A DNA stretch of 64,000 nt from a virus. The translations under genes and the position numbers were made by a program. Below, piece after piece: positions 25,463-45,974 of the stretch. The first letter of the stretch is position 1. Each line of letters starts with the position of its first letter. The stretch covers positions 1-64,000 of IMG/VR virus record IMGVR_UViG_3300025085_002722. The stretch is one strand, 5' to 3'. Below the pieces are notes generated by a model, which had not been told where the DNA came from, did no database searches, and saw nothing but the letters and a program-made list of their open reading frames with translations.

Positions 25463-25785
25463 TGGCAGACGACCACGGTATGGCAACAGCATATCACTTA
25501 ATGAGAAAAATTACGCAATGGCACCATGATCGAAATCTTATTGATGGTGCAACAGACAAAGATCAATTAGCAAAACTCATACAAGAAATGGGCGAACTAA
25601 GTGACAATATTTGTAAAGGTAAAGACGTTGCAGACGACATTGGTGATATGATTGTTGTATTAATAAACATAGCAGAAAGGAACGGCCTTACTATAGAGGA
25701 CTGTTTAGAACAAGCATGGAATGATATCAAAGACCGTAAAGGTAAAATGGTAGATGGTATCTTTGTTAAAGAAGGAGATTTATGA
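25462..25785 (+). CDS. MazG-like NTP pyrophosphohydrolase
   Basis: KLIQEMGEL..DDIGDMIVVL..AWNDIKDRKG. Confidence 0.85.
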   Translation: MADDHGMATAYHLMRKITQWHHDRNLIDGATDKDQLAKLIQEMGELSDNICKGKDVADDIGDMIVVLINIAERNGLTIEDCLEQAWNDIKDRKGKMVDGIFVKEGDL

Positions 25786-26873
25786 GTTACGAATTTACAA
25801 GCGAAAGTGTCAGCATAGGACACCCAGACAAAATAGCAGACTTAATATCAGATGCTGTAGCAACATATTTGATAAATGGCAAACAAACACATAGAGCGGC
25901 TGTAGAAACATTAGTGACAACTAATATGGTTACACTAGCAGGTGAATACAAAAGCGATATGTTTGACAAGGCAGAGATTGAAAAAATTGTTAGAGACGTT
26001 GTTAGAGGTATTGGGTACGAACAAGAAGGCTTTCACTGGAAACATCTAAAAGTATATAATGAACTACACGGGCAGTCCCCAGATATTGCATTAGGTACAG
26101 ATGATTTTGGTGCAGGTGATCAAGGACTTATGTTTGGATATGCTTGTAATGAAACTCCTAATTATATGCCAAGTGCTATTCATTACAGTCACAAAATTCT
26201 AAAAAGACTTCAAGTAGAAAGAGAAGGCGGTGAAGACTGGATTGGACCAGATAGTAAAGCACAGGTAACAATGGCGTATGACAATGTAAATACACCAACA
26301 GGTATTACAAAAATTGTATGCAGTACGCAACATAATGATGATGTAAGTATTCAAATGGTACGTGATAGAGTTGAGCAAATTATTAGAGATGAAATCACAG
26401 ATCAAGATTTAAGTAATACAGAATTCTTAATCAATCCAACTGGTAGATTTGTTATCGGTGGACCAGATGGAGATACTGGACTTACTGGAAGAAAAATTAT
26501 CGTTGATACTTATGGCGGTTATGCTCCACATGGAGGTGGTGCTTTTTCAGGTAAAGACTGTACTAAAGTTGACAGAAGTGCGGCCTACATGGCACGTTAC
26601 TTGGCAAAGAATATTGTAGCAAGTGGTAAGGCAAATAATGCCACAGTACAATTAAGTTATGCAATTGGTGTAGTAGAACCAACTAGTTTGTATGTGTATG
26701 CAGACGGACAAGTAAGAACAGACTTAGTAGATTGGATTACAGAAAATGTTGATCTAACACCAAAAGGTATTATTGATAAATTTAATTTGTTTAGTTTAGA
26801 TTTAACTACAACCACATTATATGGGCACTTCGGAAAAGACAATCTTCCGTGGGAACAAATTGATTTATTTTAA
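25782..26873 (+). CDS. metK: S-adenosylmethionine synthetase
   Basis: FTSESVSIGHPDK, GAGDQGLMFGYA, DTGLTGRKIIVDTYGG, GGGAFSGKD, YGHFG. Confidence 0.97.
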   Translation: MSYEFTSESVSIGHPDKIADLISDAVATYLINGKQTHRAAVETLVTTNMVTLAGEYKSDMFDKAEIEKIVRDVVRGIGYEQEGFHWKHLKVYNELHGQSPDIALGTDDFGAGDQGLMFGYACNETPNYMPSAIHYSHKILKRLQVEREGGEDWIGPDSKAQVTMAYDNVNTPTGITKIVCSTQHNDDVSIQMVRDRVEQIIRDEITDQDLSNTEFLINPTGRFVIGGPDGDTGLTGRKIIVDTYGGYAPHGGGAFSGKDCTKVDRSAAYMARYLAKNIVASGKANNATVQLSYAIGVVEPTSLYVYADGQVRTDLVDWITENVDLTPKGIIDKFNLFSLDLTTTTLYGHFGKDNLPWEQIDLF

Positions 26874-27421
26874 TGAAAGAATTTTGGCAAGACCTAAAAC
26901 AAGCAATTAGGACTGTACCTGATTTTCCTATTCCAGGAATACAATTTAGGGACATTACTAGTCTAATTGAAAACCCTTTAGCATTTAATAAGGCATTAGT
27001 TGACCTAACCAATGTTGCATTTCAAGGTACAAAAATTATTGGTATAGAAAGCAGAGGATTTGTGTTTGGAGCACCGTTGGCAAGAGATATGGATGTTCCT
27101 TTTATTATGGCTCGTAAGCCAGGTAAGTTACCAAACGAAACCTATAAAAAAGAATACCAACTAGAGTATGGCACAGCAACATTAGAGATACAAAAAAATA
27201 CAGAAATATTACCAGATGACAAAGTTGTGATTGTTGACGACTTAATTGCAACAGGTGGCACAGCACTTGCCTGTGCAGAATTAGTACATGCAAATTGGAA
27301 TGTGCCTAAAGAAAATATTTTAGTTGTGGCTGTAATAAACTTGACAGACTTAGGCGGCTCTGCTAAAATAGTTGCTGAAGGGTATAAAGTTAGAACCCTA
27401 ATTGAATACGAGGGCGAGTAA
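26873..27421 (+). CDS. apt: Adenine phosphoribosyltransferase
   Basis: PDFPIPGIQFRDIT, IESRGF, RKPGKLP, YQLEYG, VDDLIATGGT. Confidence 0.96.
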   Translation: MKEFWQDLKQAIRTVPDFPIPGIQFRDITSLIENPLAFNKALVDLTNVAFQGTKIIGIESRGFVFGAPLARDMDVPFIMARKPGKLPNETYKKEYQLEYGTATLEIQKNTEILPDDKVVIVDDLIATGGTALACAELVHANWNVPKENILVVAVINLTDLGGSAKIVAEGYKVRTLIEYEGE

Positions 27422-27885
27422 TGGCAAAAAAGCCTCTGCTACAAATTAAAGATATCATGGCGGCAGTAGATCGCAAAGACTACAACTACTATGCAAACCT
27501 ATCAGACGAGCAACGCAAGAGCATGAATTTGTGGATGACGCAAAGATATGCTAGTAGTGTACAAGGAAAATTTGCTGGTCATTATCTTGTAATGATAAAC
27601 GAGTTTATGAATACTAATTGGAGTGACATTAGTAAACACCCTGAACTGCAATGGAAACTAATGTGTTTAGCAGGTGTTGGCAAAAGTCAATTTCACCCTT
27701 TTGTAAAAGTGCCTAAAGCAAAACGTAAAAAAGATAAAGTTGAAGAACTAATTAGAGAAATATTTCCGTTAGCAAAGAGCGATGAAGTAGAGTTATTGCT
27801 AAGTATTAACACTAAAGAAGATTTAAAAGTATTAGCAGAAATCAATGGTATCGATGACAAAGAAATAAAGGAAATATTTAAGTGA
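27421..27885 (+). CDS. Putative clamp-loader small subunit (gp62-like)
   Basis: WMTQRYAS..INEFMN..HPELQWKL..QFHPFVK has a pattern similar to gp62-family proteins; weak. Confidence 0.45.
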   Translation: MAKKPLLQIKDIMAAVDRKDYNYYANLSDEQRKSMNLWMTQRYASSVQGKFAGHYLVMINEFMNTNWSDISKHPELQWKLMCLAGVGKSQFHPFVKVPKAKRKKDKVEELIREIFPLAKSDEVELLLSINTKEDLKVLAEINGIDDKEIKEIFK

Positions 27886-28556
27886 GTTTAACTTGCACAT
27901 ATTGTAAAAAGACATTTATGAGTGAAAGAACTCTAAGTGCTCATATGTGCCCACAAAAAAGAAGGCACACAGATAAAGATTTAACTCATGTAAGATTAGC
28001 ATTCAGAACTTATCAAAAATTTTATGAAATAAACATGCATAATGCAAAGACAAAAACGTATGATGAATTTGCTGAAAGCAAATACTACACAGGTTTTGTA
28101 AAGTTTGGAAGAAAGATGGTTAAAGAAGATTTACTAGAGCCAAATAATTATGCAGAATGGTTAATTAGAGAAAGTGTTAAATTAGCAGACTGGACAAAAG
28201 ATGCAACATATGACGTTTACTTAAAAGAATTAATTAAAAAAGAACCTGCACAACGAGGCATAGAAAGAAGTGTTAAATGTATGCAGGCATGGGGAGAAGA
28301 GAAAAGTGAAGACTGGGCAGATTATTTTAGAAAAGTAGCACCACAACTAGCAGTCTATCACATAAGGGGTGGTAAAATTTCTCCATGGTTTTTATTCCTA
28401 AGCGAGAGCGGACAAGAACTATGGGGAAAGTTTAACAGTGAACAAGTTGAACTTATAAAGGATATTGCTGATCCAGGATTTTGGAAAAGAATATTTTTAA
28501 AAAACACAGAAGAAGTTAATCTAGTACAAGACATAGCGGAGGCGTCAGGATTATGA
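27882..28556 (+). CDS. Zinc-finger-containing hypothetical protein
   Basis: N-terminal CTYCKKTF..ERTLSAHMC. Confidence 0.7.
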   Translation: MSLTCTYCKKTFMSERTLSAHMCPQKRRHTDKDLTHVRLAFRTYQKFYEINMHNAKTKTYDEFAESKYYTGFVKFGRKMVKEDLLEPNNYAEWLIRESVKLADWTKDATYDVYLKELIKKEPAQRGIERSVKCMQAWGEEKSEDWADYFRKVAPQLAVYHIRGGKISPWFLFLSESGQELWGKFNSEQVELIKDIADPGFWKRIFLKNTEEVNLVQDIAEASGL

Positions 28557-29224
28557 ACGTAAAAATAGTAAGTCACAGCCAAGCACCATATAATGATGCT
28601 TTGCACAAACATTCAGCATTAGACTTAATAGCCTATTGCGCCAGGGTAAGTAACCCAAACAATCAAAATAATATAGAAACAAATGAAAAACTTGTGAAGT
28701 ATTTGATGAAACACAAACATTGGTCACCACTTGAAATGGTGTCAGCATGTTTGGAGATTGAAACAACCAGAGACATTGCACGTCAAATACTAAGGCACAG
28801 AAGTTTTAGTTTCCAAGAGTTTAGTCAACGTTATGCTGACCCTACACAGGATTTAAGTTTTGAAATCCGTGAGGCTAGATTACAAGATCTTAAAAATAGG
28901 CAGAACAGTATTAAAACAGATAACGAAGAGTTAGAATTAGAATGGAGACAAAAACAAGAGGATCTAATCAAACAAGCAACAGACACATATACTTGGGCAA
29001 TAGAAAACGGTATTGCTAAAGAACAAGCAAGGGCAGTATTACCAGAAGGTAATACAATGAGTAGAATGTATGTTAACGGTACGTTGCGTAGTTGGATTCA
29101 CTACATTGAATTACGTGGTGCTAATGGTACACAGCAAGAGCACATTGACATTGCTCATGCAGTAGCAGATGTGATAGCAAACATATTTCCACTTGCAGAA
29201 GAATTTAAAGGTAAAGAGATATGA
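28553..29224 (+). CDS. thyX: Flavin-dependent thymidylate synthase
   Basis: HWSPLE, RHRSFSFQEFSQRY, KEQARAVLP, TQQEH. Confidence 0.96.
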   Translation: MNVKIVSHSQAPYNDALHKHSALDLIAYCARVSNPNNQNNIETNEKLVKYLMKHKHWSPLEMVSACLEIETTRDIARQILRHRSFSFQEFSQRYADPTQDLSFEIREARLQDLKNRQNSIKTDNEELELEWRQKQEDLIKQATDTYTWAIENGIAKEQARAVLPEGNTMSRMYVNGTLRSWIHYIELRGANGTQQEHIDIAHAVADVIANIFPLAEEFKGKEI

Positions 29225-29472
29225 AAAAACGAGAAGAAATGTTAGTAATCACAATGGAGGAATGTGCAGAACTTATTCAGGCATGTAGCAAAATGATAAG
29301 ATTTGACGAACCGTGTGATTATAAACAATTACAAGATGAGATCGGCGATGTCATGTGTATGATAGATATACTCAAAAATGGCGGCCTTGTTACTGATGAA
29401 CAAATACAAAAACGTATGGCAGTTAAAAAAGAAAAACTAATGAAGTGGAGTTTATTGTTCAGTGAAGATTGA
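29221..29472 (+). CDS. Small MazG-like protein
   Basis: EECAELIQA..K...LQDEIGDV. Confidence 0.75.
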   Translation: MKKREEMLVITMEECAELIQACSKMIRFDEPCDYKQLQDEIGDVMCMIDILKNGGLVTDEQIQKRMAVKKEKLMKWSLLFSED

Positions 29473-30037
29473 TTTTGATGTAGATATCGATATGGCTAAC
29501 CGCGATAAACTGCTTTGTGTGTTAGATAATATCACAGGTAGTATCAAACGTCCAGGTGGTATGGAAAAACACAACACAGGCGTTTATATACAGCCTATAC
29601 CCCATGATCCTGTAACAGGATTAAGTAATATTGATCACAAAGAAGCAGATGATTTAGGTTATTTTAAATTAGATGTACTGAACAATAGTGTATACAACAA
29701 TATAGAATCAGAGCAGGAGTTAGATAAATTATGTAATCAAGAACCTGTATGGGATTTATTTGGTGCTAAAGAAATTGTAGAACAACTATTTCATATCAGC
29801 AATCATTTTGATATTGTGAACCAACATAGGCCTACAAACATAGACCAACTAGCAATGATACTTGCAATGATAAGGCCTGGTAAAAGATATCTTGTAGGTA
29901 AAAGTTGGAGTGAGATTGAAAAGGAAGTATGGATTAAAGGTGACAACGAAACGTACTCCTTTAAGAAGTCTCACGCATATAGTTACGCAATGGCTATAAT
30001 TGTTCAGTTAAATAAATTAGTCAGCCTTCTTGACTAA
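29462..30037 (+). CDS. Miniature DNA polymerase III alpha (DnaE)-like protein, 191 aa
   Basis: Ordered DnaE motifs: FDVDID, KHNTGV, GYFKLDVL, LFHI, AMIRPG, YSFKKSHAYSY. Confidence 0.8.
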   Translation: MKIDFDVDIDMANRDKLLCVLDNITGSIKRPGGMEKHNTGVYIQPIPHDPVTGLSNIDHKEADDLGYFKLDVLNNSVYNNIESEQELDKLCNQEPVWDLFGAKEIVEQLFHISNHFDIVNQHRPTNIDQLAMILAMIRPGKRYLVGKSWSEIEKEVWIKGDNETYSFKKSHAYSYAMAIIVQLNKLVSLLD

Positions 30038-30388
30038 TTGAATTGTTCTTCTTTTAATTCTTTTCTTAACTAGATTATGAATGCTGGTCACTGGACCAAA
30101 TATGATATCTATATCTTTGTTATTGAATGTTTTTAAACAATTCCTAAACTCTCTCATCTCATTAAATAAAAACACATCAATTGGGATTTGACGATTACTT
30201 TCCCACCACCATGTTTCGCCTAATTCTACAAATTGTTTCTTTTCTTCAGGTGCTACTAGCACATTATAATCGTAGAAAGATGTGACTGCATTGTCTTGAT
30301 TTTGAACTATACCAAAGTATTCTTTCTCACCATATGTAAGCATAGTAAAGAAAGGAAACTTTTCTTGTATTTCCTGTTGGTCCTGCAT
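30017..30388 (-). CDS. Hypothetical protein
   Basis: Start reassigned to ATG 30388 (TATAAATA-aaaat-ATG on minus strand); contains LGETWWWESNRQIPI. Confidence 0.72.
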   Translation of the reverse strand: MQDQQEIQEKFPFFTMLTYGEKEYFGIVQNQDNAVTSFYDYNVLVAPEEKKQFVELGETWWWESNRQIPIDVFLFNEMREFRNCLKTFNNKDIDIIFGPVTSIHNLVKKRIKRRTIQLVKKAD

Positions 30389-30438
30389 ATTTTTATTTAT
30401 ACCTTTGTAGATAAATACATTATAAGGAATGAACATGT

Positions 30439-31257
30439 ATGAGCAATTTAACACTATTAATGTATCAATCAAACACACTGAATCTTGTAAAGAAGCAGGA
30501 AAATTATTATGTGGATAACAGAAGTATGAACAGAAAAGAATTTATAGTACACAAAGGTATGGACAATATCGTGTACATCAATATTACAAATCAAGACAGA
30601 AAAAAAGAAAATGTGTATAATAATGATATACAAGCAGACATTATCAAATACTCTACTAACGAAAAAGTATTGACAAGGTTTGCAGTACCTGGTCTTAATA
30701 AAGGTACAGCAGAACTCAAACTGTCAGAAGAAGATATGAATTCTTTAGTCGAAGGACAATACAAAGTGTCATTTAAAAATGTTGCAGACGATGGTACTAA
30801 GACTCCAATCTATTCTGATTACAACAATGGAATACTTTGCACATTAATAGTAAAGAATGATGCAAATCCTTCGCCAGTACCAACACAGGTTGCAAATGTA
30901 TGGAACCAAACAAGTAGTTTAGAAAACGGCGATGCGGCAAATGTTTTCACAAGCGGTTCATTTGAAGGCAATCAACACAAAAACTTTAGAGATGCAACAC
31001 ATACAATAGGAATATACTCAACCGAATTTACAGGAAACGTGTTTGTAGAAGGCAGTTTAAGTTTACAAGCACCTTCAAGCGATGATTCAAATTGGGCAAG
31101 TGTACCTGTAGTAAACAATTTAGAAAGAATACCAATGGCAAATGTGTCCGGTGTAACTTATTACAGTTTCACGGGCAACTTCAATTTCTTAAGATTTAAA
31201 TATTCTCCTGGTTCAACTAATTCAGGATCATTTGATAAAATTCTTTTAAGAAATTAA
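30439..31257 (+). CDS. Hypothetical late, probably structural, beta-rich protein
   Basis: 272 aa; late promoter at 30411 and SD-like AAGGA; FTGNVFVEGSL and FTGNFNFLRFKY. Confidence 0.65.
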   Translation: MSNLTLLMYQSNTLNLVKKQENYYVDNRSMNRKEFIVHKGMDNIVYINITNQDRKKENVYNNDIQADIIKYSTNEKVLTRFAVPGLNKGTAELKLSEEDMNSLVEGQYKVSFKNVADDGTKTPIYSDYNNGILCTLIVKNDANPSPVPTQVANVWNQTSSLENGDAANVFTSGSFEGNQHKNFRDATHTIGIYSTEFTGNVFVEGSLSLQAPSSDDSNWASVPVVNNLERIPMANVSGVTYYSFTGNFNFLRFKYSPGSTNSGSFDKILLRN

Positions 31258-31814: not shown

Positions 31815-32804
31815 ATGGAGCACTCTGACGCAATACAACAGGTACATGAGTTGTTGACAACTCACTTGCCTCACAAACATAAAAAGACACCTGCAGGTTG
31901 GGTGACTTTTAATTGTCCTATGTGCAATGACAAACGAGGCAGAGCAGGAGTAATATCCACAGGTCCTAAGATTGCGTATAATTGTTTTAACTGTGGTTTC
32001 TCAACTGGCTGGAGTCCTAGCAAAAAGATTGGTAAAAAATACAAAGACCTTGCAGTAAAGTTAGGTGCAACTAACGAAAGTGTAAAGAAACTTGTACTAG
32101 AACTAATGAAAATAGAAGAGTTTGATAACGAAAGTGACGATATTGTTATAAGTTATGAAAAATTCAAACCAGTAGAATTACCAAATGTAATAAATGTAAG
32201 AGATGTTCCGCAATTACCATACAACGAAACACATGAAAAAATAATGTTGTATGCAAAAGAAAGAAAACTGTTAGATACAAATTATGATTTGTTTATTTGC
32301 GATGACTTTATGTTAAAAAATAGACTAATTATTCCTTTTTACTACAACCAAGAAGTAGTAGGTTATGTAGGTAGACATATAAATCCGCCTACAAAAGAAA
32401 CTCCTAAGTACATAAACAACAGTCAAGCAGGATATGTGTTTAACATAGACAAATACATTTACTCAGATAGAGATATTGTAGTAGTAACAGAAGGTGTTAT
32501 TGATGCTATACTAATAGATGGTGTAAGTGTGTTAGGTAATACTATGAACGAAAGACAGATACAACAGATAAATTCGTTAAATAAAAAAGTAATACTTTGC
32601 CCGGACAGAGATGCGCCAGGTAAAGATTTAATAAGGCAGGCCGCTGAACTAGGGTGGGAAGTAAGTTTCCCACCTTGGCACACAGACATAAAAGATGTAG
32701 GCGATGCGGTACTCAAATATGGCAGACTTTTGACATTATCTAGTATAATTAAATATGCTGTCGCAAATAAAATTAAGATTGAAGTACAGAGTAAAATGTT
32801 ATGA
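31815..32804 (+). CDS. DNA primase (gp61-like)
   Basis: Zn ribbon CPMC..CFNC, RLIIPFY, TOPRIM VTEGVIDA and PDRDAPG, KDVGD. Confidence 0.9.
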   Translation: MEHSDAIQQVHELLTTHLPHKHKKTPAGWVTFNCPMCNDKRGRAGVISTGPKIAYNCFNCGFSTGWSPSKKIGKKYKDLAVKLGATNESVKKLVLELMKIEEFDNESDDIVISYEKFKPVELPNVINVRDVPQLPYNETHEKIMLYAKERKLLDTNYDLFICDDFMLKNRLIIPFYYNQEVVGYVGRHINPPTKETPKYINNSQAGYVFNIDKYIYSDRDIVVVTEGVIDAILIDGVSVLGNTMNERQIQQINSLNKKVILCPDRDAPGKDLIRQAAELGWEVSFPPWHTDIKDVGDAVLKYGRLLTLSSIIKYAVANKIKIEVQSKML

Positions 32805-34186
32805 GTGATATAAAAGAATACGGCGAAGATATACAAGAACTGTTTCTAAGATTTTTAGTTACAGATCCTGATGTATTTGTAAGGGTAAACAATATTGTTG
32901 AGCCTTATATGTTTAATAGAAAATACAGAGATGCTGTAGAGTTCTTAAAAGATCATGCTAACAAATATGCTAGTATTCCTACATTAGAGCAACTTGAAGC
33001 AGTAAATGGCTTAGATTTAAAGCCAGTTGAAGATGCACATGACAGTCACATGAGTTGGTTTATGGATGAGTTTGAAACATTCTGTAGACATAAAGCATTA
33101 GAAAAAGCAATACTAGATAGTACAGACTTATTAGAAAATAAAGACTATGGTAGTGTAGAGGCACTTATCAAAGAAGCAACTGGCGTAGGTTTAGTAAGTG
33201 ATTTTGGTTTAGATTATTATGAAAATCCTAAAGAAAGATTACAATGGATTAAAGATCAAGCAGGAGCAATAAGCACAGGCTGGAAAAACTTCGATCAAAA
33301 GTTATATGGTGGACTTAATAGGGGAGAACTTACAGTATTTGCAGGTGGTTCAGGTGCAGGTAAGAGTTTGTTTTTACAAAACTTAGGTGTAAACTGGAGT
33401 CAAGCAGGACTTAATACTGTTTATTTGAGTCTAGAGTTAAGTGAACAACTGTCAAGTATGCGTATTGATGCTATGGTTAGTGAGTATGCCACTAGAGATG
33501 TTATGAAAAACATGGATGATGTGGACTTAAAAGTGCGTATGAAAGGTAAAGGTGCAGGTAAATTCCGCATAAAACAGATGAGCAATGGTGTAAATGCCAA
33601 TGATATTAGGTCGTTTTTGAGAGAATATGAGATACAAACAGGCATCAAAGTAGACGCATTATTGGTAGATTACTTGGATTTGATGATGCCAATTAGCGGA
33701 AAAGTTAGTCCGAGTGACTTGTTTATTAAAGACAAGTATGTATCAGAAGAATTGCGTAACTTAGCAGTTGAATTAAATGTGTTATTAGTTACAGCATCGC
33801 AGTTGAACAGGGGTGCTGTGGAAGAAATAGAATTTGATCACAGTCATATTGCAGGTGGTATTAGTAAAATACAAACAGCAGATAATGTTGTGGGTATTTT
33901 TACAAGCAACGCCATGCGAGAACGTGGTAGATATCAAATACAGTTTATGAAAACACGTTCTAGTAGCGGTGTTGGTAGTAAAGTAGACCTAAAATTCAAC
34001 CCAGAAACCCTAAGAATTGAAGATTTAGAAGAAGATGAAGAGACGTATGACACTATTAATACGATAACTATGACCGAAACACTTAAAAGATCATCAGCAA
34101 TCAGAAGCGACGAAGACGCAACTGACGACAATGTCGACATAGTACAGCAAGGTTTGGAACTTAGGAATCTCCTCAAGAAGAAGTAA
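32801..34186 (+). CDS. Replicative DnaB-like helicase (gp41-like)
   Basis: GGSGAGKS, SLELSE, VDYLDL, TASQLNR, MKTR. Confidence 0.93.
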   Translation: MSDIKEYGEDIQELFLRFLVTDPDVFVRVNNIVEPYMFNRKYRDAVEFLKDHANKYASIPTLEQLEAVNGLDLKPVEDAHDSHMSWFMDEFETFCRHKALEKAILDSTDLLENKDYGSVEALIKEATGVGLVSDFGLDYYENPKERLQWIKDQAGAISTGWKNFDQKLYGGLNRGELTVFAGGSGAGKSLFLQNLGVNWSQAGLNTVYLSLELSEQLSSMRIDAMVSEYATRDVMKNMDDVDLKVRMKGKGAGKFRIKQMSNGVNANDIRSFLREYEIQTGIKVDALLVDYLDLMMPISGKVSPSDLFIKDKYVSEELRNLAVELNVLLVTASQLNRGAVEEIEFDHSHIAGGISKIQTADNVVGIFTSNAMRERGRYQIQFMKTRSSSGVGSKVDLKFNPETLRIEDLEEDEETYDTINTITMTETLKRSSAIRSDEDATDDNVDIVQQGLELRNLLKKK

Positions 34187-39030: not shown

Positions 39031-39309
39031 ATGAGAATAGTTGAAGTAGAAGGAGTAATGGAGGCCAAAATGGTCTGGGCCAAGCGAGGCAGTAAAATTG
39101 TTCGTAAGGTCAGATGTACTAGTGGCCCACGCAAAGGCAGAATGGTGTCTAATGCAGGTCAATGCTCAAAACCTATCAACTTAAAAAAACGCATGACGCT
39201 CAAAAAGACCAGAGCAAAAATGGGTAGAAGAATGGCAAGGAGAGCCGCAAGAACAAAAAGGCGTAATCCAGTTAGCAAAAGAGTTGCAAGGCTTAATAGA
39301 AGAAGATGA
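39031..39309 (+). CDS. Small very basic protein (tag MRIVEV)
   Basis: K/R-rich 92 aa; RCTSGPRKGR..C. Confidence 0.7.
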   Translation: MRIVEVEGVMEAKMVWAKRGSKIVRKVRCTSGPRKGRMVSNAGQCSKPINLKKRMTLKKTRAKMGRRMARRAARTKRRNPVSKRVARLNRRR

Positions 39310-42300
39310 AACTAGCAGACTTATACGAATATAACAAAGGAATACAAGACCCAAATTCCAACGCAAAACAGTCAAATAAAAATGACGACGAAATGGAATT
39401 GGAGCCATTCACACCTGACCAAGAAAAGGAAGTAGCAAAAGGTTTTAAGGCACTAGGAGCCAAGTTAGGTCAGCCTATACAAAATCCTAAAATGGCCGCC
39501 AAAGGCATAAACAAGGCCATACAAGGCGACAAGCCAACACCACAGCAATTACAATCAAAATTACCAATTGATGTACAATTAACAAAAGCAATGCAGACTC
39601 CTGCATTGAGAAATCAATTAGCAAACATACTTAAAAAAGCAAACCAAATAGACATCGACGAAAACACCCTTGCTAAAAAAATATTAAAAAAATTAACAGG
39701 TAAAAAAGCACTAACAAAATTCAAAAGAAGATCTAAACTACTCAAAGAAGCAGATCCTACATTATGCGAAATAAATTTTAATAAAAAAGAAATAGTAAAA
39801 GGTTCGTTGGAACTGCCTATAAAATGTGGATTTGAAGCAGAAACATTTTTCTATTCAGTAGAAAGCAGTGGCGCCAGTGACGATGTAGACAACATGAGTA
39901 TCAGTGATATCGAATACGAATACGGTGATATGCCAGATAGTGCATATGAAGATTATCAGTCCTGGTTGTACACTAAAGGGCAAGATGAATACTTAGATGA
40001 CTTAATTACAGACAAAGTAAACGAAGTCAAAGAAGATGAAGACTGGTTAAACGAGTTTATTGACAGTAGCGATGGCCCAAGTTCAGAAGCAATAGAACAA
40101 TACAAAAAAGATTTTGAAGACGCCGATCCCAAAGAATATGAAAACCGTGAAGAAGATGGTTGGGAGTATATGAATTGGGTCAGAGAATATGTTGAAGAAG
40201 AATATGAAAACGAATATTTGATATGGTTAGAGGATGCTGTCAGAGAAGACAGCGACCTAGATCAAGAAGCCAAAGAACTTGCTGAAGGTGATTACAGCAT
40301 GGATGATTGGGTAAACGATACCTATGATTACATGAGTAGTTTCCTCGATGATTATGGTTTTGATTACAGTAGGTCAGGCGGTGATGTTGAAGGTGTAGCA
40401 GATGAATTAAATAACTGGATTAAAGATAATAGTAAATTTACAGACTATCCAGATTCAGGGGAATACGGCGAAACAAATACTACAACTGCTTGGTCAGTTG
40501 AGACTGACAGCAGTATAGATCCGGACGAAGGTGCCGGCGCAGAACTTATTTCTCCTGTATTTGATAGTCCAAGAGATATGCTTGAAGAAATGAAAAGTTT
40601 ATTTGACTGGAGCGAAACAAACTTTGGCACAAACAATTCCACAGGACTACATGTAACAATGAGTTGGCATGGTAAAAATCCTGATACAGTACAAGATGAA
40701 GACGGCGAATTTTGGGGAGATGAACCATCAGGACCAAACAAATTAAAAATGGCATTACTGTTAGGTGATGAATATTTACTTGCAGAATTTGGCAGGTTAA
40801 AAAACAGTTACACAAAAAGTCAATACAATAATGTATTAAAACATGCAGAAGGCATGAAACGTGGTGAGGCAAAAAGTTTTAAAGAATTTGAAAAGATACT
40901 CACAAAAGGCATAGACACTGGCAAGTTTAACAGTATACATTTTAAAAACGAAAAAGACAGAATAGCAGGAACCAATCTTGTAGAGTTTAGAATTGCCGGC
41001 GGTGCAAATTACAATGAAATGTATGAAAAAGTTGTTAAAGCAGTTATTAGATACGCAACTATCATGCAAGCCGGATATGAAAAAGACGCATATAAAAGAG
41101 ATTATGTTAATGCTGTGTTCAGGCTTTTGCGTAAATCACAAGAAATAGACCCTAAAAGATTAAAAGCATTATCAGTTGTTAATCACGAAGTTATAGACTC
41201 TGCTAAAAATATAGTAGGTAAAAAAGACTACTTTGATGTTATTAATTTTTTAAGCAATAGTGTTGAAAGTTTGAGATATTATGAAGAATTAAGCAAACCA
41301 GGTGCTGACAAAGAATGGTTAAAAAGTGTTAAAGAATATGAAAAAAATACTGGTACAAAATTAGATATAAAAGAAGTAGAAGAACGCGAACCAATAGAAG
41401 GTTATTTACAGCCAGACAGAATCAGACCAAGCAAAGGTGCGGCAAGCGAATTAAAAAAAGCACAAGAAAAATTTGCATCGGCTGTTACTATAATAGCAAG
41501 AGATATAGCAGACGGTAATAACAGAAGTACTGTTTCAGCAAAAGATATAGGCGCATTTAGAAAATATGCAAATTTAGTTAAGTTAGATGATAAAGAATTA
41601 GAAAAAATTGTCATGACAAAAATGGATGATTTTAACTGGGGTGATCCTGATAAAAGCAATATTAACAGATTGAAAAAAGGTATAGATACTTTATTCAAAA
41701 GAAATATAATTTCAGAACCAGAATATCTTACACCGCAAGATGCTGACAGGATTGCTACAGGTATGTGGCAATTTTATCAAACAGACGATGTAAAAGACAA
41801 TGCTAAAACTGACAAACTTGCAGAATTATTCATGCAATTAAATCCAAAAAATGATAAACCTAATGTTGTAGATATATTAAAAGATTTAATGCATGAAAGA
41901 CAACAAAATGGATTTAGTGCTAAACTAAAAGGCTCAGGTTGGAATACCGGTATTACTTTGATAGGCACAGGAAAAATTACCACACCAGGAGCATCTGCAG
42001 AATTATTAAAATTCTTAGAACCATATAGTGGTTACAAACACCCAACCGGCAAACAGCATCATATTAATATCAAAAGCGATGACCCTTATGCATCTGTGTT
42101 TGACATGAGACTTCGACAACGTTTAAGAGAAAGATTAGTACATATAAGAGAGTTAGAAACAGACGATCCAGAAAAAGCAACTAAACTACAGCAACAATTA
42201 GTCAAAATTGGACTTGAATTATTAGAAGGCCTAAAGCCTAGACCAGATCTTTGGGATGAAGATGATGACGGATTCGCCCAAATTAGACGGGGTAATGATG

Positions 42301-45300
42301 GAACAGCAGATTTGGCTTCACATAGTGATTTAGAACGTTGGAATAATACTATGGACAGGATTGTAAAATTAGAAAGTGAACTAACATCAAGCGATAAAAC
42401 ATATAATTTTTTTAGTGCGTATGACGACTATATTTTAGGTGTTATACATTTAGATAGATATTATTCTTGGAAAGAAAACAACGGACCTACGCAACATGCT
42501 GTTTTGAAAAACTTACACAAAGAAAGATTTGCATCAATTAAAAAATTCTTATCAGAATTTGATAAAGTATTCCGCAAAGAAGGCTTCTTGGATTTAAAAG
42601 CAGAAATACAAGCAAAAAATACATTAGATAGAAGAAATAGAGACTTTGAAAAGAATGTCAGAGATAATTCAAAAGGAAAACTAAACATACCAAGTCACAG
42701 TTGGATGTACATAGACAAAGACTTTTTTGATACAATAACAGATAAAAGTTATGGTGATAGAGAAGCATATTTAGATAATCATATAGACAACTTTAACAAA
42801 AATGTAAACAATACCAAAGTGTATGTTATACCTTCAAGTCACTGGAGTGATGCCGAAGATGCCACAAACGGTTTAGAACTTATAGATACATTTGAAAAAA
42901 ACAAAAACTATTATCACACTTGGAGAAAGAAAAATTATAAACGAGTAATCAACAAATTCCAGAACACATATGGGTATAGTTGGAAAAATTTAACCGACAA
43001 CGAAAAGTTTTATTCAGGCAACGGAGACTTGTATGCAAAACTCAAAGACATTGGTATCGAAATCACTCACAAAGGCGACAGTAGAAAAGGTGCACCTGGT
43101 CAAACAGATTTACTGTCAGACGAATTAACTAAGAATCCTACCAGCGGTGAACCACTAAACAGAAGTAGTGCAACAAGTTGGTCATTGAACAACGACGAAG
43201 CAAGCCAAAAACAATTTGATGCATTTGATTGGGAACAGTACCCAGCAAAAATGAAAGATATTGTTGCTAAGGTTATGAAGCAAGATCGATATGGTAGTTT
43301 TAAAGTAGCATTAGAAGATGTACTTAGAAAAGTTTTAGATGGTAAAGTGTCAATAGACAAAGAAGATTTAGGAAGACCTATAGACAGAATGGCGAATGCG
43401 GCAGGCATTGAAACAGACGATGGTGGTTCCTCAAACGGTATAGCAAGTAAAACAAATTGGAAAACTTTATCAGACTACTTAAAGATTGAAAGAGGTGTAA
43501 ATGATCAAGGTCCAAACTTACTTTTAAAAGTTTATAATCAATTTGATGGCAATCACGAATGGAGACCTCAAGAAACCGACGAGGATGGTAGAGACGTAAT
43601 TGGATTAAAAAGATGGGCCGCCGCAGTTAAAGAAGCAGAAAAATATATCAGAGACAACTACAATGTAAGTGGAGGAAACTACTTTAGAAAGAATGTAGAT
43701 GGCAGTGACGGCGACAATGTAAGCAGTATGTATAGTAATAATACAATATCAACATCACCAGAAAATGAGTTTGATTCAGATTACGACAAAGCCAGAGCAG
43801 ACCATCCAGGCTTTGATAGAATGATGAATCGTGGTATGCAAAATTACTTAGCACGTGGCGAAGTAAATGACCTAGTAGGATTTTTAAACAATCCAGACAA
43901 TGATAATGTTTTCAAATCGCAGGTTTTAAATACTATAACGAATCGAGGTGATATGGAAAACGGTCCTTTTGCTACTTTCCAAGATGCATTAGCAGTTACT
44001 CGTAGACAAGGCAATGAAAGTGTATTTGATAAATTTGATGCATTGCCTTTACAAGAACAGTTGCGTATTATAAATCAATCAAATGTATTAGAAAAATTTA
44101 CTGAAAGAAAATTATCTAAAGATGAAAAAGAAGACAAAGAAAAATACGTCAAAGGCATGAAGAAAAACAAAAAAGGTTTCAAAAAAAGATATGGAGATGA
44201 CGCAGAAGCAGTAATGTATGCAACCGCAACTAAGATGGCAAAGGAAAATAAAATAAATACTAATATGAAAAATGTTTTTGAACAGTTTGAAAATTTATCA
44301 CTAGAAAAGCAATTAGAAATATTGCACAGTCCTGTAGTAGAAGGATTTTTCAGTGACGTAGATGTTGACATGAGAGAGTTGTCATACAAAGCATTTGCTA
44401 AAAAATATCCAGAATACGCACATTTACATCCTGGTGCAGAAGAGTTATCTACAAAGCCAATCAAAATGAAAAAAGCACCTTACAATAAAGAACAGCATAT
44501 CAAGAACACATTTGCTAAATTTAAAAGAGACCACGGCGAAGCAAAAGCAAAAATAATGTTGGATAAAATGATGCAGAGAGGATACTTTGATAAGGACATG
44601 TCAGAAAGTTTACTGGGCATTGATATTTTAACCAGAACTAAAAAACTCACAGAAAATATGCCTAACAATAATAAATTAGCAATACTAAGAAGATTACTGT
44701 CAAGAACTTTTCCTGTAGGTGACTTAGATATGCAATTCCAAGCATATTTAGCCTTGCCAATACCAAAAATGATGACAGCATTTAGTCAATTAAAAAGCAT
44801 AAAAGGACCAGATGCATGTGCAAGGGATATACTTAGGCATTATGCAAAAAATAGATTACCAGATGCAGAAGTAAAGCAACTTGATCTCAATGAAAGTTAT
44901 ATTAGAGAAGATGCAGATGAAGACAGATTAAACAGTATAATGACTGCATTAGAAAATAATCCAAGTTTTGCAAAACGAGTTTACAAAATGTTAAAACTTG
45001 ATAAAGAATCAGCAGACCATTTGGACATCGAAGATAGACTTAAAAATAATGACACCGGTAAGGAAAACGATCATAGAATTAACAAGAATATCATGAGACA
45101 ATTAGTTACCTCTTTAGAACAACTAGATCATGATTTTGATGAATTAAATTCATTTGTTGAAACTTACGGACACACAGATTATGTAAACACAGAATTATTA
45201 AACAAGTCTGGTGTATTTAAAATTTCAGATATGCTGGTTGGTAGCGACACAGTATCTAAAGAATTTATAGATGATCTTTATGAAAAATTATTTGACTTTA

Positions 45301-45974
45301 GAATTAATATTTCTGGATCAAACAGAGGGCCAGGTGAACTTGGATTATGTTTACTGTCACCTAATGTAGAACTTGCTTCGGTAGGTGATATCAAAGTTAA
45401 TGGCGAAGAAATAGAAGTTAAAGGTGAGGTATCGTCAGGTGGCGGTAGAATGGTTAACGGTATTGACGACTTTAAGTTTAGTGGATTAGCACAGGTCAAA
45501 TCACAACTAGTACCATTTTATGAAAAGCATGATATTCCAGAAGAATTAAGAATTTACAATTTAAAAGGTGCAGTTGGCGGAGGCCGTAATCAGGGTCAGG
45601 CTCATATACTAGATCAAGCACAACAATTAGAACAAGTAAAACAAGGTGTAGGTGCTGAATTTTTAAAATTAATTGTTAGCACATATCAATTTGTTATTGA
45701 CTCAGAAGAAGAAGCAGAATTAACAGGTTCATTTATGAATATGGATAAGACTAGGTTCTTAACACTTGTAGGATTAATGTCATTTAAAAATTATGCATAT
45801 ATGTTAAACAAAAAAGGATTCAATAGATTAATATTTTTAAATTGGAGATATGATAAAGTAGTAAATTGTACAACAGAAGAATTTCCAAAATACAGTGAGC
45901 ATTTAGCATTTACAAGTTTAGATATGGCAGACAGTCAAAATGGTCCAGCAGTACAGGTATCAGTGTTAAAATGA
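39306..45974 (+). CDS. Giant multi-domain protein: amidoligase (COOH-NH2 ligase)-like domain plus C-terminal PD-(D/E)xK-like domain
   Basis: 2222 aa. [29 protein letters not shown] and VEFRIAGG; C-terminal GPGEL...[14 protein letters not shown]; N-terminus MKLADLYE. Confidence 0.78.
44253..44267 (+). promoter_or_regulatory. Internal late promoter with in-frame ATG
   Basis: ATAAATA(44253-59)-ctaat-ATG(44265), in frame with the 2222-aa ORF. Confidence 0.5.

Follow-up and report, generated by a model that had tools for sequence, protein, structure and literature searches.

A 191-residue DnaE-derived protein of a marine T4-like jumbo phage, probably the C-terminal unit of a split minimal DNA polymerase III alpha

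Introduction

What can a protein of 191 amino acids (aa) that carries the signature motifs of the C-family DNA polymerase DnaE do in a T4-like phage? This question is raised by an open reading frame (ORF) at 29462..30037 of the window, by which we mean the whole stretch of 64,000 nucleotides analyzed here, the first 64 kb of the 130,385-bp virus record IMGVR_UViG_3300025085_002722 from IMG/VR (CheckV completeness about 25%). An initial annotation of this DNA had treated the protein as new, had called it a miniature polymerase core, and had offered four possible functions for it, namely primer extension, template-free synthesis, formation of a signal nucleotide, or a role as one subunit of a split polymerase. 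Our analysis indicates that the ORF probably encodes the C-terminal unit (C-unit) of a split minimal DNA polymerase III (Pol III) alpha, one half of what would be a two-chain auxiliary DNA polymerase. Such a split enzyme has been described from sequence for T4-like 'group 2.2' jumbo phages (Iyer et al., 2021, Viruses 13:63; PMC7824862), and by its sequence the window protein appears to fit the C-terminal unit presented in that paper. Because the family has been in print since 2021, the protein is not, contrary to what had first been assumed, of a new kind; it adds a marine member to a known family, and the finding itself is not a discovery. As to function, Iyer et al. (PMC7824862) only suggest cooperation with the B-family enzyme, or repair.

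Motifs and fold of the C-unit

Since a TGA is read in frame at 29441-29443, the GTG at 29462 is the earliest possible start of the ORF. The gene, a putative signal in front of it and five of its motifs are located as follows:

29462..30037, + strand: putative C-terminal (Mg2+/template-binding) unit of a split minimal Pol III alpha (C-unit), 191 aa, GTG start
29447..29450, + strand: GGAG, ribosome-binding-like, 11 nt before the GTG of the C-unit, as read from the sequence
29477..29491, + strand: D6-V-D8-I-D10, metal-binding DxD(xD) strand within FDVDID (residues 5-10), from alignments with 86 homologues
29567..29584, + strand: KHNTGV, residues 36-41 (H37, G40), long beta-hairpin of the palm, on strand 33-42 of the model
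29657..29680, + strand: GYFKLDVL, residues 66-73 (K69 and the third catalytic Asp, D71), from alignments
29861..29881, + strand: LAMIRPG finger motif, residues 134-140 (R138, P139), aligned with E. coli ...ALFRPG ending at 641
29954..29986, + strand: YSFKKSHAYSY finger motif, residues 165-175 (K168, K169, H171), aligned with E. coli YGFNKSHSAAY (K758, H760)

Together with LFHI at residues 109-112, all six DnaE motifs named in the initial annotation were located within one intact ORF, in the order in which they occur in DnaE. In the profile alignments D6, D8 and D10 pair with D401, D403 and D405 of E. coli DnaE and with D463, D465 and D467 of the Taq enzyme, and K69 and D71 pair with K553 and D555 (E. 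coli) and with K616 and D618 (Taq).

The relationship with C-family polymerases was evident from profile comparisons. The protein matched phrog_11778 ('DNA polymerase', 197 positions) with an E value of 3.5e-67 (residues 4-188 on profile positions 6-193), the sole match to this family in the entire 130,385-bp record, and the DnaE-type family phrog_405 (1190 positions) with an E value of 4.1e-7 (residues 53-140 on 579-678). A PDB search with the single sequence gave chance matches only (E about 1). When a profile built from 86 diverse homologues (27-51% identity with the window protein) was compared with the PDB, nine sequences were found at E <= 0.001, every one of them a DNA polymerase III alpha. 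The matching segments were collinear on both reference enzymes, covering positions 460-521 (PDIDTDF), 602-705 (LLKMDFLG ... YRPG) and 809-824 (YGFNKSHAAAY) of Taq Pol III alpha, and 400-418, 539-641 and 740-768 of the E. coli enzyme.

With the same alignment of 86 homologues as input, AlphaFold2 produced a model of the C-unit with a predicted local distance difference test score (pLDDT) of 96.1 and a predicted template modelling score (pTM) of 0.88. The top 17 rows of a Foldseek search with this model were all C-family polymerases (best E 6.5e-4). Structural alignment placed 189 of the 191 residues on positions 458-837 of Taq Pol III alpha (3e0d_A; Z 10.4, root-mean-square deviation (rmsd) 3.5 A), 185 residues on positions 397-780 of E. 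coli Pol III alpha (Z 8.8) and 188 residues on positions 968-1300 of a PolC-type chain (Z 8.0). Among unrelated chains the highest score was Z 4.1, and all chains above this score were C-family polymerases, so that the structural match to the DnaE palm proposed at the outset was recovered, with Z 10.4 for Taq against Z 4.1. Since 189 of 191 residues span Taq 458-837, about half of the approximately 380 DnaE residues are absent, and the modeled C-unit can be described as the palm-plus-fingers segment of DnaE minus about half of its intervening residues. The initial annotation was right that intervening sequence has been removed, and overstated the extent in writing of almost all of it. The missing DnaE stretch includes E. 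coli positions ~432 to ~539, between which we take the thumb of E. coli DnaE to lie.

Conservation and selection

The residues D6, D8, K69, D71 and P139 were invariant in the homologues (86/86), the aspartates D6, D8 and D71, which had been singled out initially, thus being conserved throughout; D10 was found in 84, H37, G40 and R138 in 85 each, K168 in 79 and H171 in 82. In addition, 13 relatives from the same clade were compared with the window C-unit by the Nei-Gojobori method. Where dS stayed below 1 (11 comparisons), the ratio of nonsynonymous to synonymous substitution rates (dN/dS) was 0.03-0.08; one comparison with dS 2.7 gave 0.12, and another was saturated. Purifying selection on the C-unit gene is strong in this marine clade. 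The conservation of residues and the low dN/dS together indicate that the gene is real and constrained, and with the homology and the fold they uphold the earlier view of a conserved DnaE-derived mini-protein as opposed to a gene fragment.

Distribution and source phage

A search for homologues of the C-unit returned 1641 proteins with a length of about 190 aa; the family was also matched by 379 clusters formed at 50% identity. By tblastn, 96 cultured-phage records were recovered, all at less than 60% identity, and in 94 the match covered 80% or more of the query; nearly all of the matches listed were jumbo phages of 284-490 kb, for example RaK2, PA5oct, Atu_ph07 and Phosso, and their relatives from coliphages, Erwinia, Serratia and Xanthomonas. 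The search for longer homologues gave one match, a methyltransferase-bearing protein of 390 aa with 44% of the query covered. Apart from the possible source samples, five further marine-metagenome runs, belonging to four studies, contained near-identical DNA (at least 0.89 of sampled words). Contigs of four marine metatranscriptome libraries (two studies) covered parts of the C-unit ORF with at least 90% likeness (29461-30374), without differences at 29545-29676 and 29904-30374; as such libraries can hold DNA, these contigs are a hint of expression and no proof of it.

A T4-like core is encoded in the window, comprising sheath, tube, terminase, a gp32-like single-stranded DNA-binding protein, UvsX, UvsY, a primase, a DnaB-like helicase and a ribonucleotide reductase. 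With these core genes and with jumbo phages among the relatives listed, the source is a T4-like (group 2.2) jumbo phage. The remainder of the record (64-130 kb) carries auxiliary genes of host-like type, namely peptide deformylase, ribosomal protein S21-like, Hsp20, QueD-like, peroxiredoxin and radical-SAM genes.

A second unit encoded elsewhere in related genomes

Five residues precede the DxD strand in the C-unit chain, which has no G-R-G-S helix half of the palm. Enzymes of the Pol-beta fold need this G-R-G-S triphosphate-binding element, and without it the C-unit of a Pol-beta-like fold is a half-enzyme. The label of a polymerase core therefore claimed too much, because the NTP-binding half is missing from the chain and relatives encode it as a separate gene of about 175 aa. 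Phosso, Atu_ph07 and RaK2 each have one copy of this second unit (N-unit, phrog_11127), with an ORF length of 172-177 aa; the products end in ...G-x-G-R-G-S-S-V-x-S-Y...E-F-L, and their match to PF07733 does not extend beyond profile position 94.

The two units occur in the same genomes. The N-unit, the C-unit and the family B polymerase domain PF00136 were each found in all three complete isolates (RaK2, Atu_ph07 and Phosso), with N- and C-unit 33, 182 and 224 kb apart, and the C-unit was present on 16 of 58 N-unit-bearing IMG/VR records, including 7/7 of those at least 90% complete. A similar picture was obtained from cultured phages, for which the N-unit/C-unit matches per genus were 34/34 (Escherichia), 11/11 (Pseudomonas), 8/8 (Erwinia), 8/8 (Salmonella), 4/4 (Xanthomonas) and 10/11 (Klebsiella). 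Within the flanks examined, the 96 N-unit loci contained no C-unit and the 103 C-unit loci no N-unit. The N-unit family comprises at least 8000 proteins. Both units are joined in P0210, a protein of 375 aa in which phrog_11127 (residues 8-180) is followed by phrog_11778 (190-374) after a linker of about 10 residues, and PF07733 runs unbroken over the junction (residues 97-207, E 4.8e-16). A MAFFT alignment of this fused form with both halves stacked N-units onto C-units and was not used. Among the four functions first offered, one subunit of a split polymerase is the one that fits these data, given the complementary halves, their co-occurrence and the fusion.

The missing partner in the marine record

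Several observations weigh against reading the window protein as the C-unit of a split Pol III alpha. The equation with the C-terminal unit of PMC7824862 is drawn from the text of that paper and from the tests reported here, and in the literature found there was no experimental or biochemical work on the split Pol III family, only the sequence analysis of 2021. A Pfam scan of the C-unit protein gave nothing at E <= 0.1, and PF07733 and PF17657 missed the ORF and matched nowhere else in the record. There was likewise no second match to phrog_405 and, in this fragment, none to PF00136, so that the other DnaE pieces or gp43 envisaged in the initial annotation did not appear; its statement on the B-family enzyme of T4-like phages is borne out in the relatives (PF00136 in 3/3 complete genomes), and the fragment itself adds no match. 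The fused form is a single sequence on a single 2,415-bp ENA contig and is for this reason weak as a 'Rosetta stone'.

Most directly, no N-unit was found in the 130,385 bases of the record, whether by phrog_11127, by a six-frame motif scan or by a six-frame search with a hidden Markov model (HMM) of 30 N-units; the six-frame scan found G-x-G-[RK]-G-S in no frame of the record and in none of the neighbors of the C-unit. In other lineages, 26 of 80 N-unit loci have a homologue of the cytidylyltransferase-like gene (here 88044-88490) at a distance of 0.6-4.8 kb downstream of the N-unit, 11 of 80 have a homologue of UvdE (here 85636-86715) at 5.4-9.3 kb upstream, and eight of the 80 loci have both flanks. 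In the present record these two genes are separated by just 1.3 kb, which contains an unrelated ORF of 275 aa, and the slot of the N-unit is empty. The N-unit was also absent from 36 C-unit contigs of the clade and from 32 clade contigs reached via the sheath-like gene at the left end, each of these contigs being 2-22% complete, and a scan of genome contigs for an N-unit partner of this clade found none. The gene at the right end of the record had no relatives in IMG/VR. In the closest record with both units the C-unit is only 52% identical to the window copy. With no N-unit on the clade contigs searched, and with C-units at most 52% identical to the window copy on the records that have both units, the pairing of N- and C-unit is presumed for this clade.

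It is much more likely that the partner gene lies in the unseen ~75% of the genome than that it has been lost in the clade. Loss of the N-unit, or its displacement from the slot, in this abundant marine clade, which would leave a metal-binding half with an unrecognized partner or alone, appears improbable to us. The empty slot in a record of 130 kb, together with the confident, compact single-chain model and the presence of every metal-binding residue, would also agree with a stand-alone minimal nucleotidyltransferase that works without any N-unit, be it template-free, as a source of a signal nucleotide or as a minimal primer extender; such an enzyme is nevertheless unlikely, as the G-R-G-S triphosphate-binding element is missing from the C-unit, the two units co-occur in 3/3 isolates and in 7/7 near-complete N-unit-bearing IMG/VR records, one natural fusion joins them, the chains above Z 4.1 are all C-family polymerases and about 75% of the genome is unseen. 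The stand-alone, template-free and signal-nucleotide functions among those first offered accordingly find no support in anything we observed.

Gene neighborhood of the C-unit

The C-unit stands in a replication block whose order is kept (p27421, zinc-finger protein, C-unit, convergent small gene, virion protein, primase, helicase) and is common to RaK2, Atu_ph07, Phosso, long IMG/VR records and the clade of the window. Neighbors were counted in three isolates, in 15 long IMG/VR records (1.5-kb flanks) and in 80 loci of the clade, and the counts below are given in this order:

27421..27885, + strand: p27421, 154 aa, phrog_11758; upstream of the C-unit in 3/3, 7/15 and 54/80
27882..28556, + strand: zinc-finger protein, 224 aa, phrog_11058; upstream of the C-unit in 3/3, 10/15 and 55/80
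28553-29472, + strand: ThyX (PF02511, E 1.1e-42) and MazG-like (83 aa) genes, which separate the zinc-finger gene from the C-unit
30017..30478, - strand: convergent gene, 153 aa, phrog_11637; 3/3, 13/15 and 80/80
30439..31257, + strand: gene labelled 'virion structural protein' in relatives (PHROG, synteny)
31815..32804, + strand: DnaG/gp61-type primase (Pfam Toprim and DNAG_N; phrog_47, E 2.2e-42; synteny)
32801..34186, + strand: DnaB/gp41-like replicative helicase (phrog_19, E 1.3e-74; synteny)

The MazG-like ORF overlaps the start of the C-unit by 11 nt. ThyX and the MazG-like gene were found at this place only in the present clade (43/80 and 59/80 loci) and in 0/18 elsewhere, and the 'nucleotide-metabolism operon' that the C-unit had been said to end is therefore a local insertion into the replication block. 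Directly upstream of the block, 25782-27421 (+ strand) encodes an S-adenosylmethionine synthetase with all three Pfam domains and a phosphoribosyltransferase. Further downstream, 39306-45974 (+ strand) is an ORF of 2222 aa, the lone PHROG match of which is short (residues 1610-1661) and to a family of unknown function.

The description of p27421 as gp62-like was not borne out, since the profile of its family had no gp62 match in the PDB and its PHROG family is of unknown function. The protein from 27882 carries an N-terminal C2H2-type finger, and the profile of its family matches C2H2 fingers only (residues ~5-30); its model shows an all-alpha body (pLDDT 93.4), for which no fold was found in the PDB (best E 0.76 by Foldseek, best Z 4.9 in a wide structural search). 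T4 gp59 scored Z 4.0 with an rmsd of 12.5 A. The HMM of 30 N-units matched homologues of the zinc-finger protein weakly (E 0.007-0.25), and the idea that it is a diverged N-unit was rejected because the profile-profile probability was 0.46% (E 0.13). Co-folding of the C-unit and the zinc-finger protein, from alignments of 86 and 19 rows, respectively, returned 'no answer' with a score of 0.00; run without controls, it speaks neither way on binding. The convergent gene at 30017, whose 3' end overlaps or abuts the stop of the C-unit in most lineages, has invariant W-W-x-E-x-N-R and G-P motifs and had no match in PDB or Pfam.

These fixed neighbors (the zinc-finger protein, p27421 and the convergent gene) are the candidates for a swap of partners, according to which the canonical N-unit was lost in the marine clade and the C-unit pairs with another protein that supplies nucleotide or DNA binding. 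Such a swap would account for the empty slot between two retained flanking genes, for the constancy with which the three neighbors stay with the C-unit in lineages at only 42-50% C-unit identity, and for a zinc-finger protein that is confidently modeled (pLDDT 93.4) without a recognizable fold, yet we regard it as hardly probable: the same neighbors stand beside the C-unit in RaK2, Atu_ph07 and Phosso, which have an N-unit, and are thus not substitutes for it, the zinc-finger and N-unit families reached a profile-profile probability of only 0.46%, and no neighbor contains G-x-G-[RK]-G-S.

A proposed two-chain polymerase

If the window protein is the C-unit of a split Pol III alpha, its first ~80 residues would form the beta-sheet part of a Pol-beta-like palm carrying D6, D8, D71 and K69, and its last ~110 residues a pared-down helical finger module with the R-P-G and K-K-S-H motifs, which in DnaE face the incoming nucleotide and the template. 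The N-unit (~175 aa, phrog_11127) would supply the triphosphate grip of the helix and G-R-G-S and thereby complete the palm. The two units may dock non-covalently, without an intein, and so rebuild one active site, and the resulting two-chain enzyme of ~365 residues could extend a primer on a template. Because it would have no thumb, clamp-binding, OB or proofreading parts, it would probably copy short stretches only, and we picture it as a short-patch polymerase beside the family B replicase, with primer hand-off, gap filling and repair among its conceivable tasks. A PHP or exonuclease domain would likewise be missing from it. A catalytically dead relic of DnaE with a structural or regulatory role in the replisome, such as a DNA- or primase-binding adaptor, would suit the loss of most DnaE domains, the fixed place beside primase and helicase and the lack of any demonstrated activity in the literature found, but it is very unlikely in view of D6, D8, K69 and D71 in 86/86 and R138 and H171 in at least 82/86 homologues across 27-51% identity, and of a dN/dS of 0.03-0.12.

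Significance and comparison with known systems

Should an active enzyme indeed arise from the two units of the split Pol III alpha, its ~365 residues in two chains, as compared to more than 1100 in one, would make it the smallest C-family DNA polymerase by a wide margin. It would offer a tractable model for the assembly of the Pol III active site and possibly for an ancestral enzyme, as argued by Iyer et al. (PMC7824862), and would raise the question why a second polymerase persists beside primase and helicase in phages that have a T4-type replicase. The window extends the split Pol III family into a well-sampled marine clade in which the gene is strongly constrained, and if re-partnering were true, it would provide a natural case of a polymerase half with a new partner.

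CCA-adding enzymes and cGAS/CD-NTases share the Pol-beta superfold and a metal site of three carboxylates. None of them was among the matches of our structure searches, and their G-[GS] element is missing from the C-unit chain. In cyanobacteria, DnaE, a C-family polymerase, is encoded in two distant genes and its halves are spliced to full length by a split intein. Encoding in two genes is shared with the phage units; in these, the N-unit stops directly behind ...E-F-L and the cut lies inside the palm. By size, the end of the N-unit and the start of the C-unit appear to leave no room for an intein, no search for intein motifs having been made.

The bacterial DnaE enzymes (Taq 3e0d/2hpi, E. coli 2hnh) have the same palm strands (DxD, K-x-D) and the same finger motifs (RPG, KSH) as the C-unit, in the same order and three-dimensional arrangement. 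They contain 1160-1220 residues in one chain, whereas the C-unit is equivalent to Taq 458-837 with about half deleted. Unlike DnaE, the C-unit has no N-terminal half of the palm and nothing past the middle of the fingers, as judged from the ranges of the structural alignments, and a PHP domain is lacking by alignment range only, no PF02811 search having been made. The clamp-binding, HhH and OB parts of DnaE presumably lie beyond this range and would thus be missing from the C-unit.

The closest counterpart is the C-terminal unit of the split minimal Pol III alpha (phrog_11778), as presented in PMC7824862. With it the window protein shares the size of ~190 aa, an end-to-end profile match, the same metal- and template-binding motifs, a T4-like phage as its source and a place near primase and helicase. 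The window copy differs from these relatives in that it comes from an uncultured marine clade, is at most 52% identical to the copies on records with both units, and has ThyX and a small MazG inserted between the C-unit and the zinc-finger gene.

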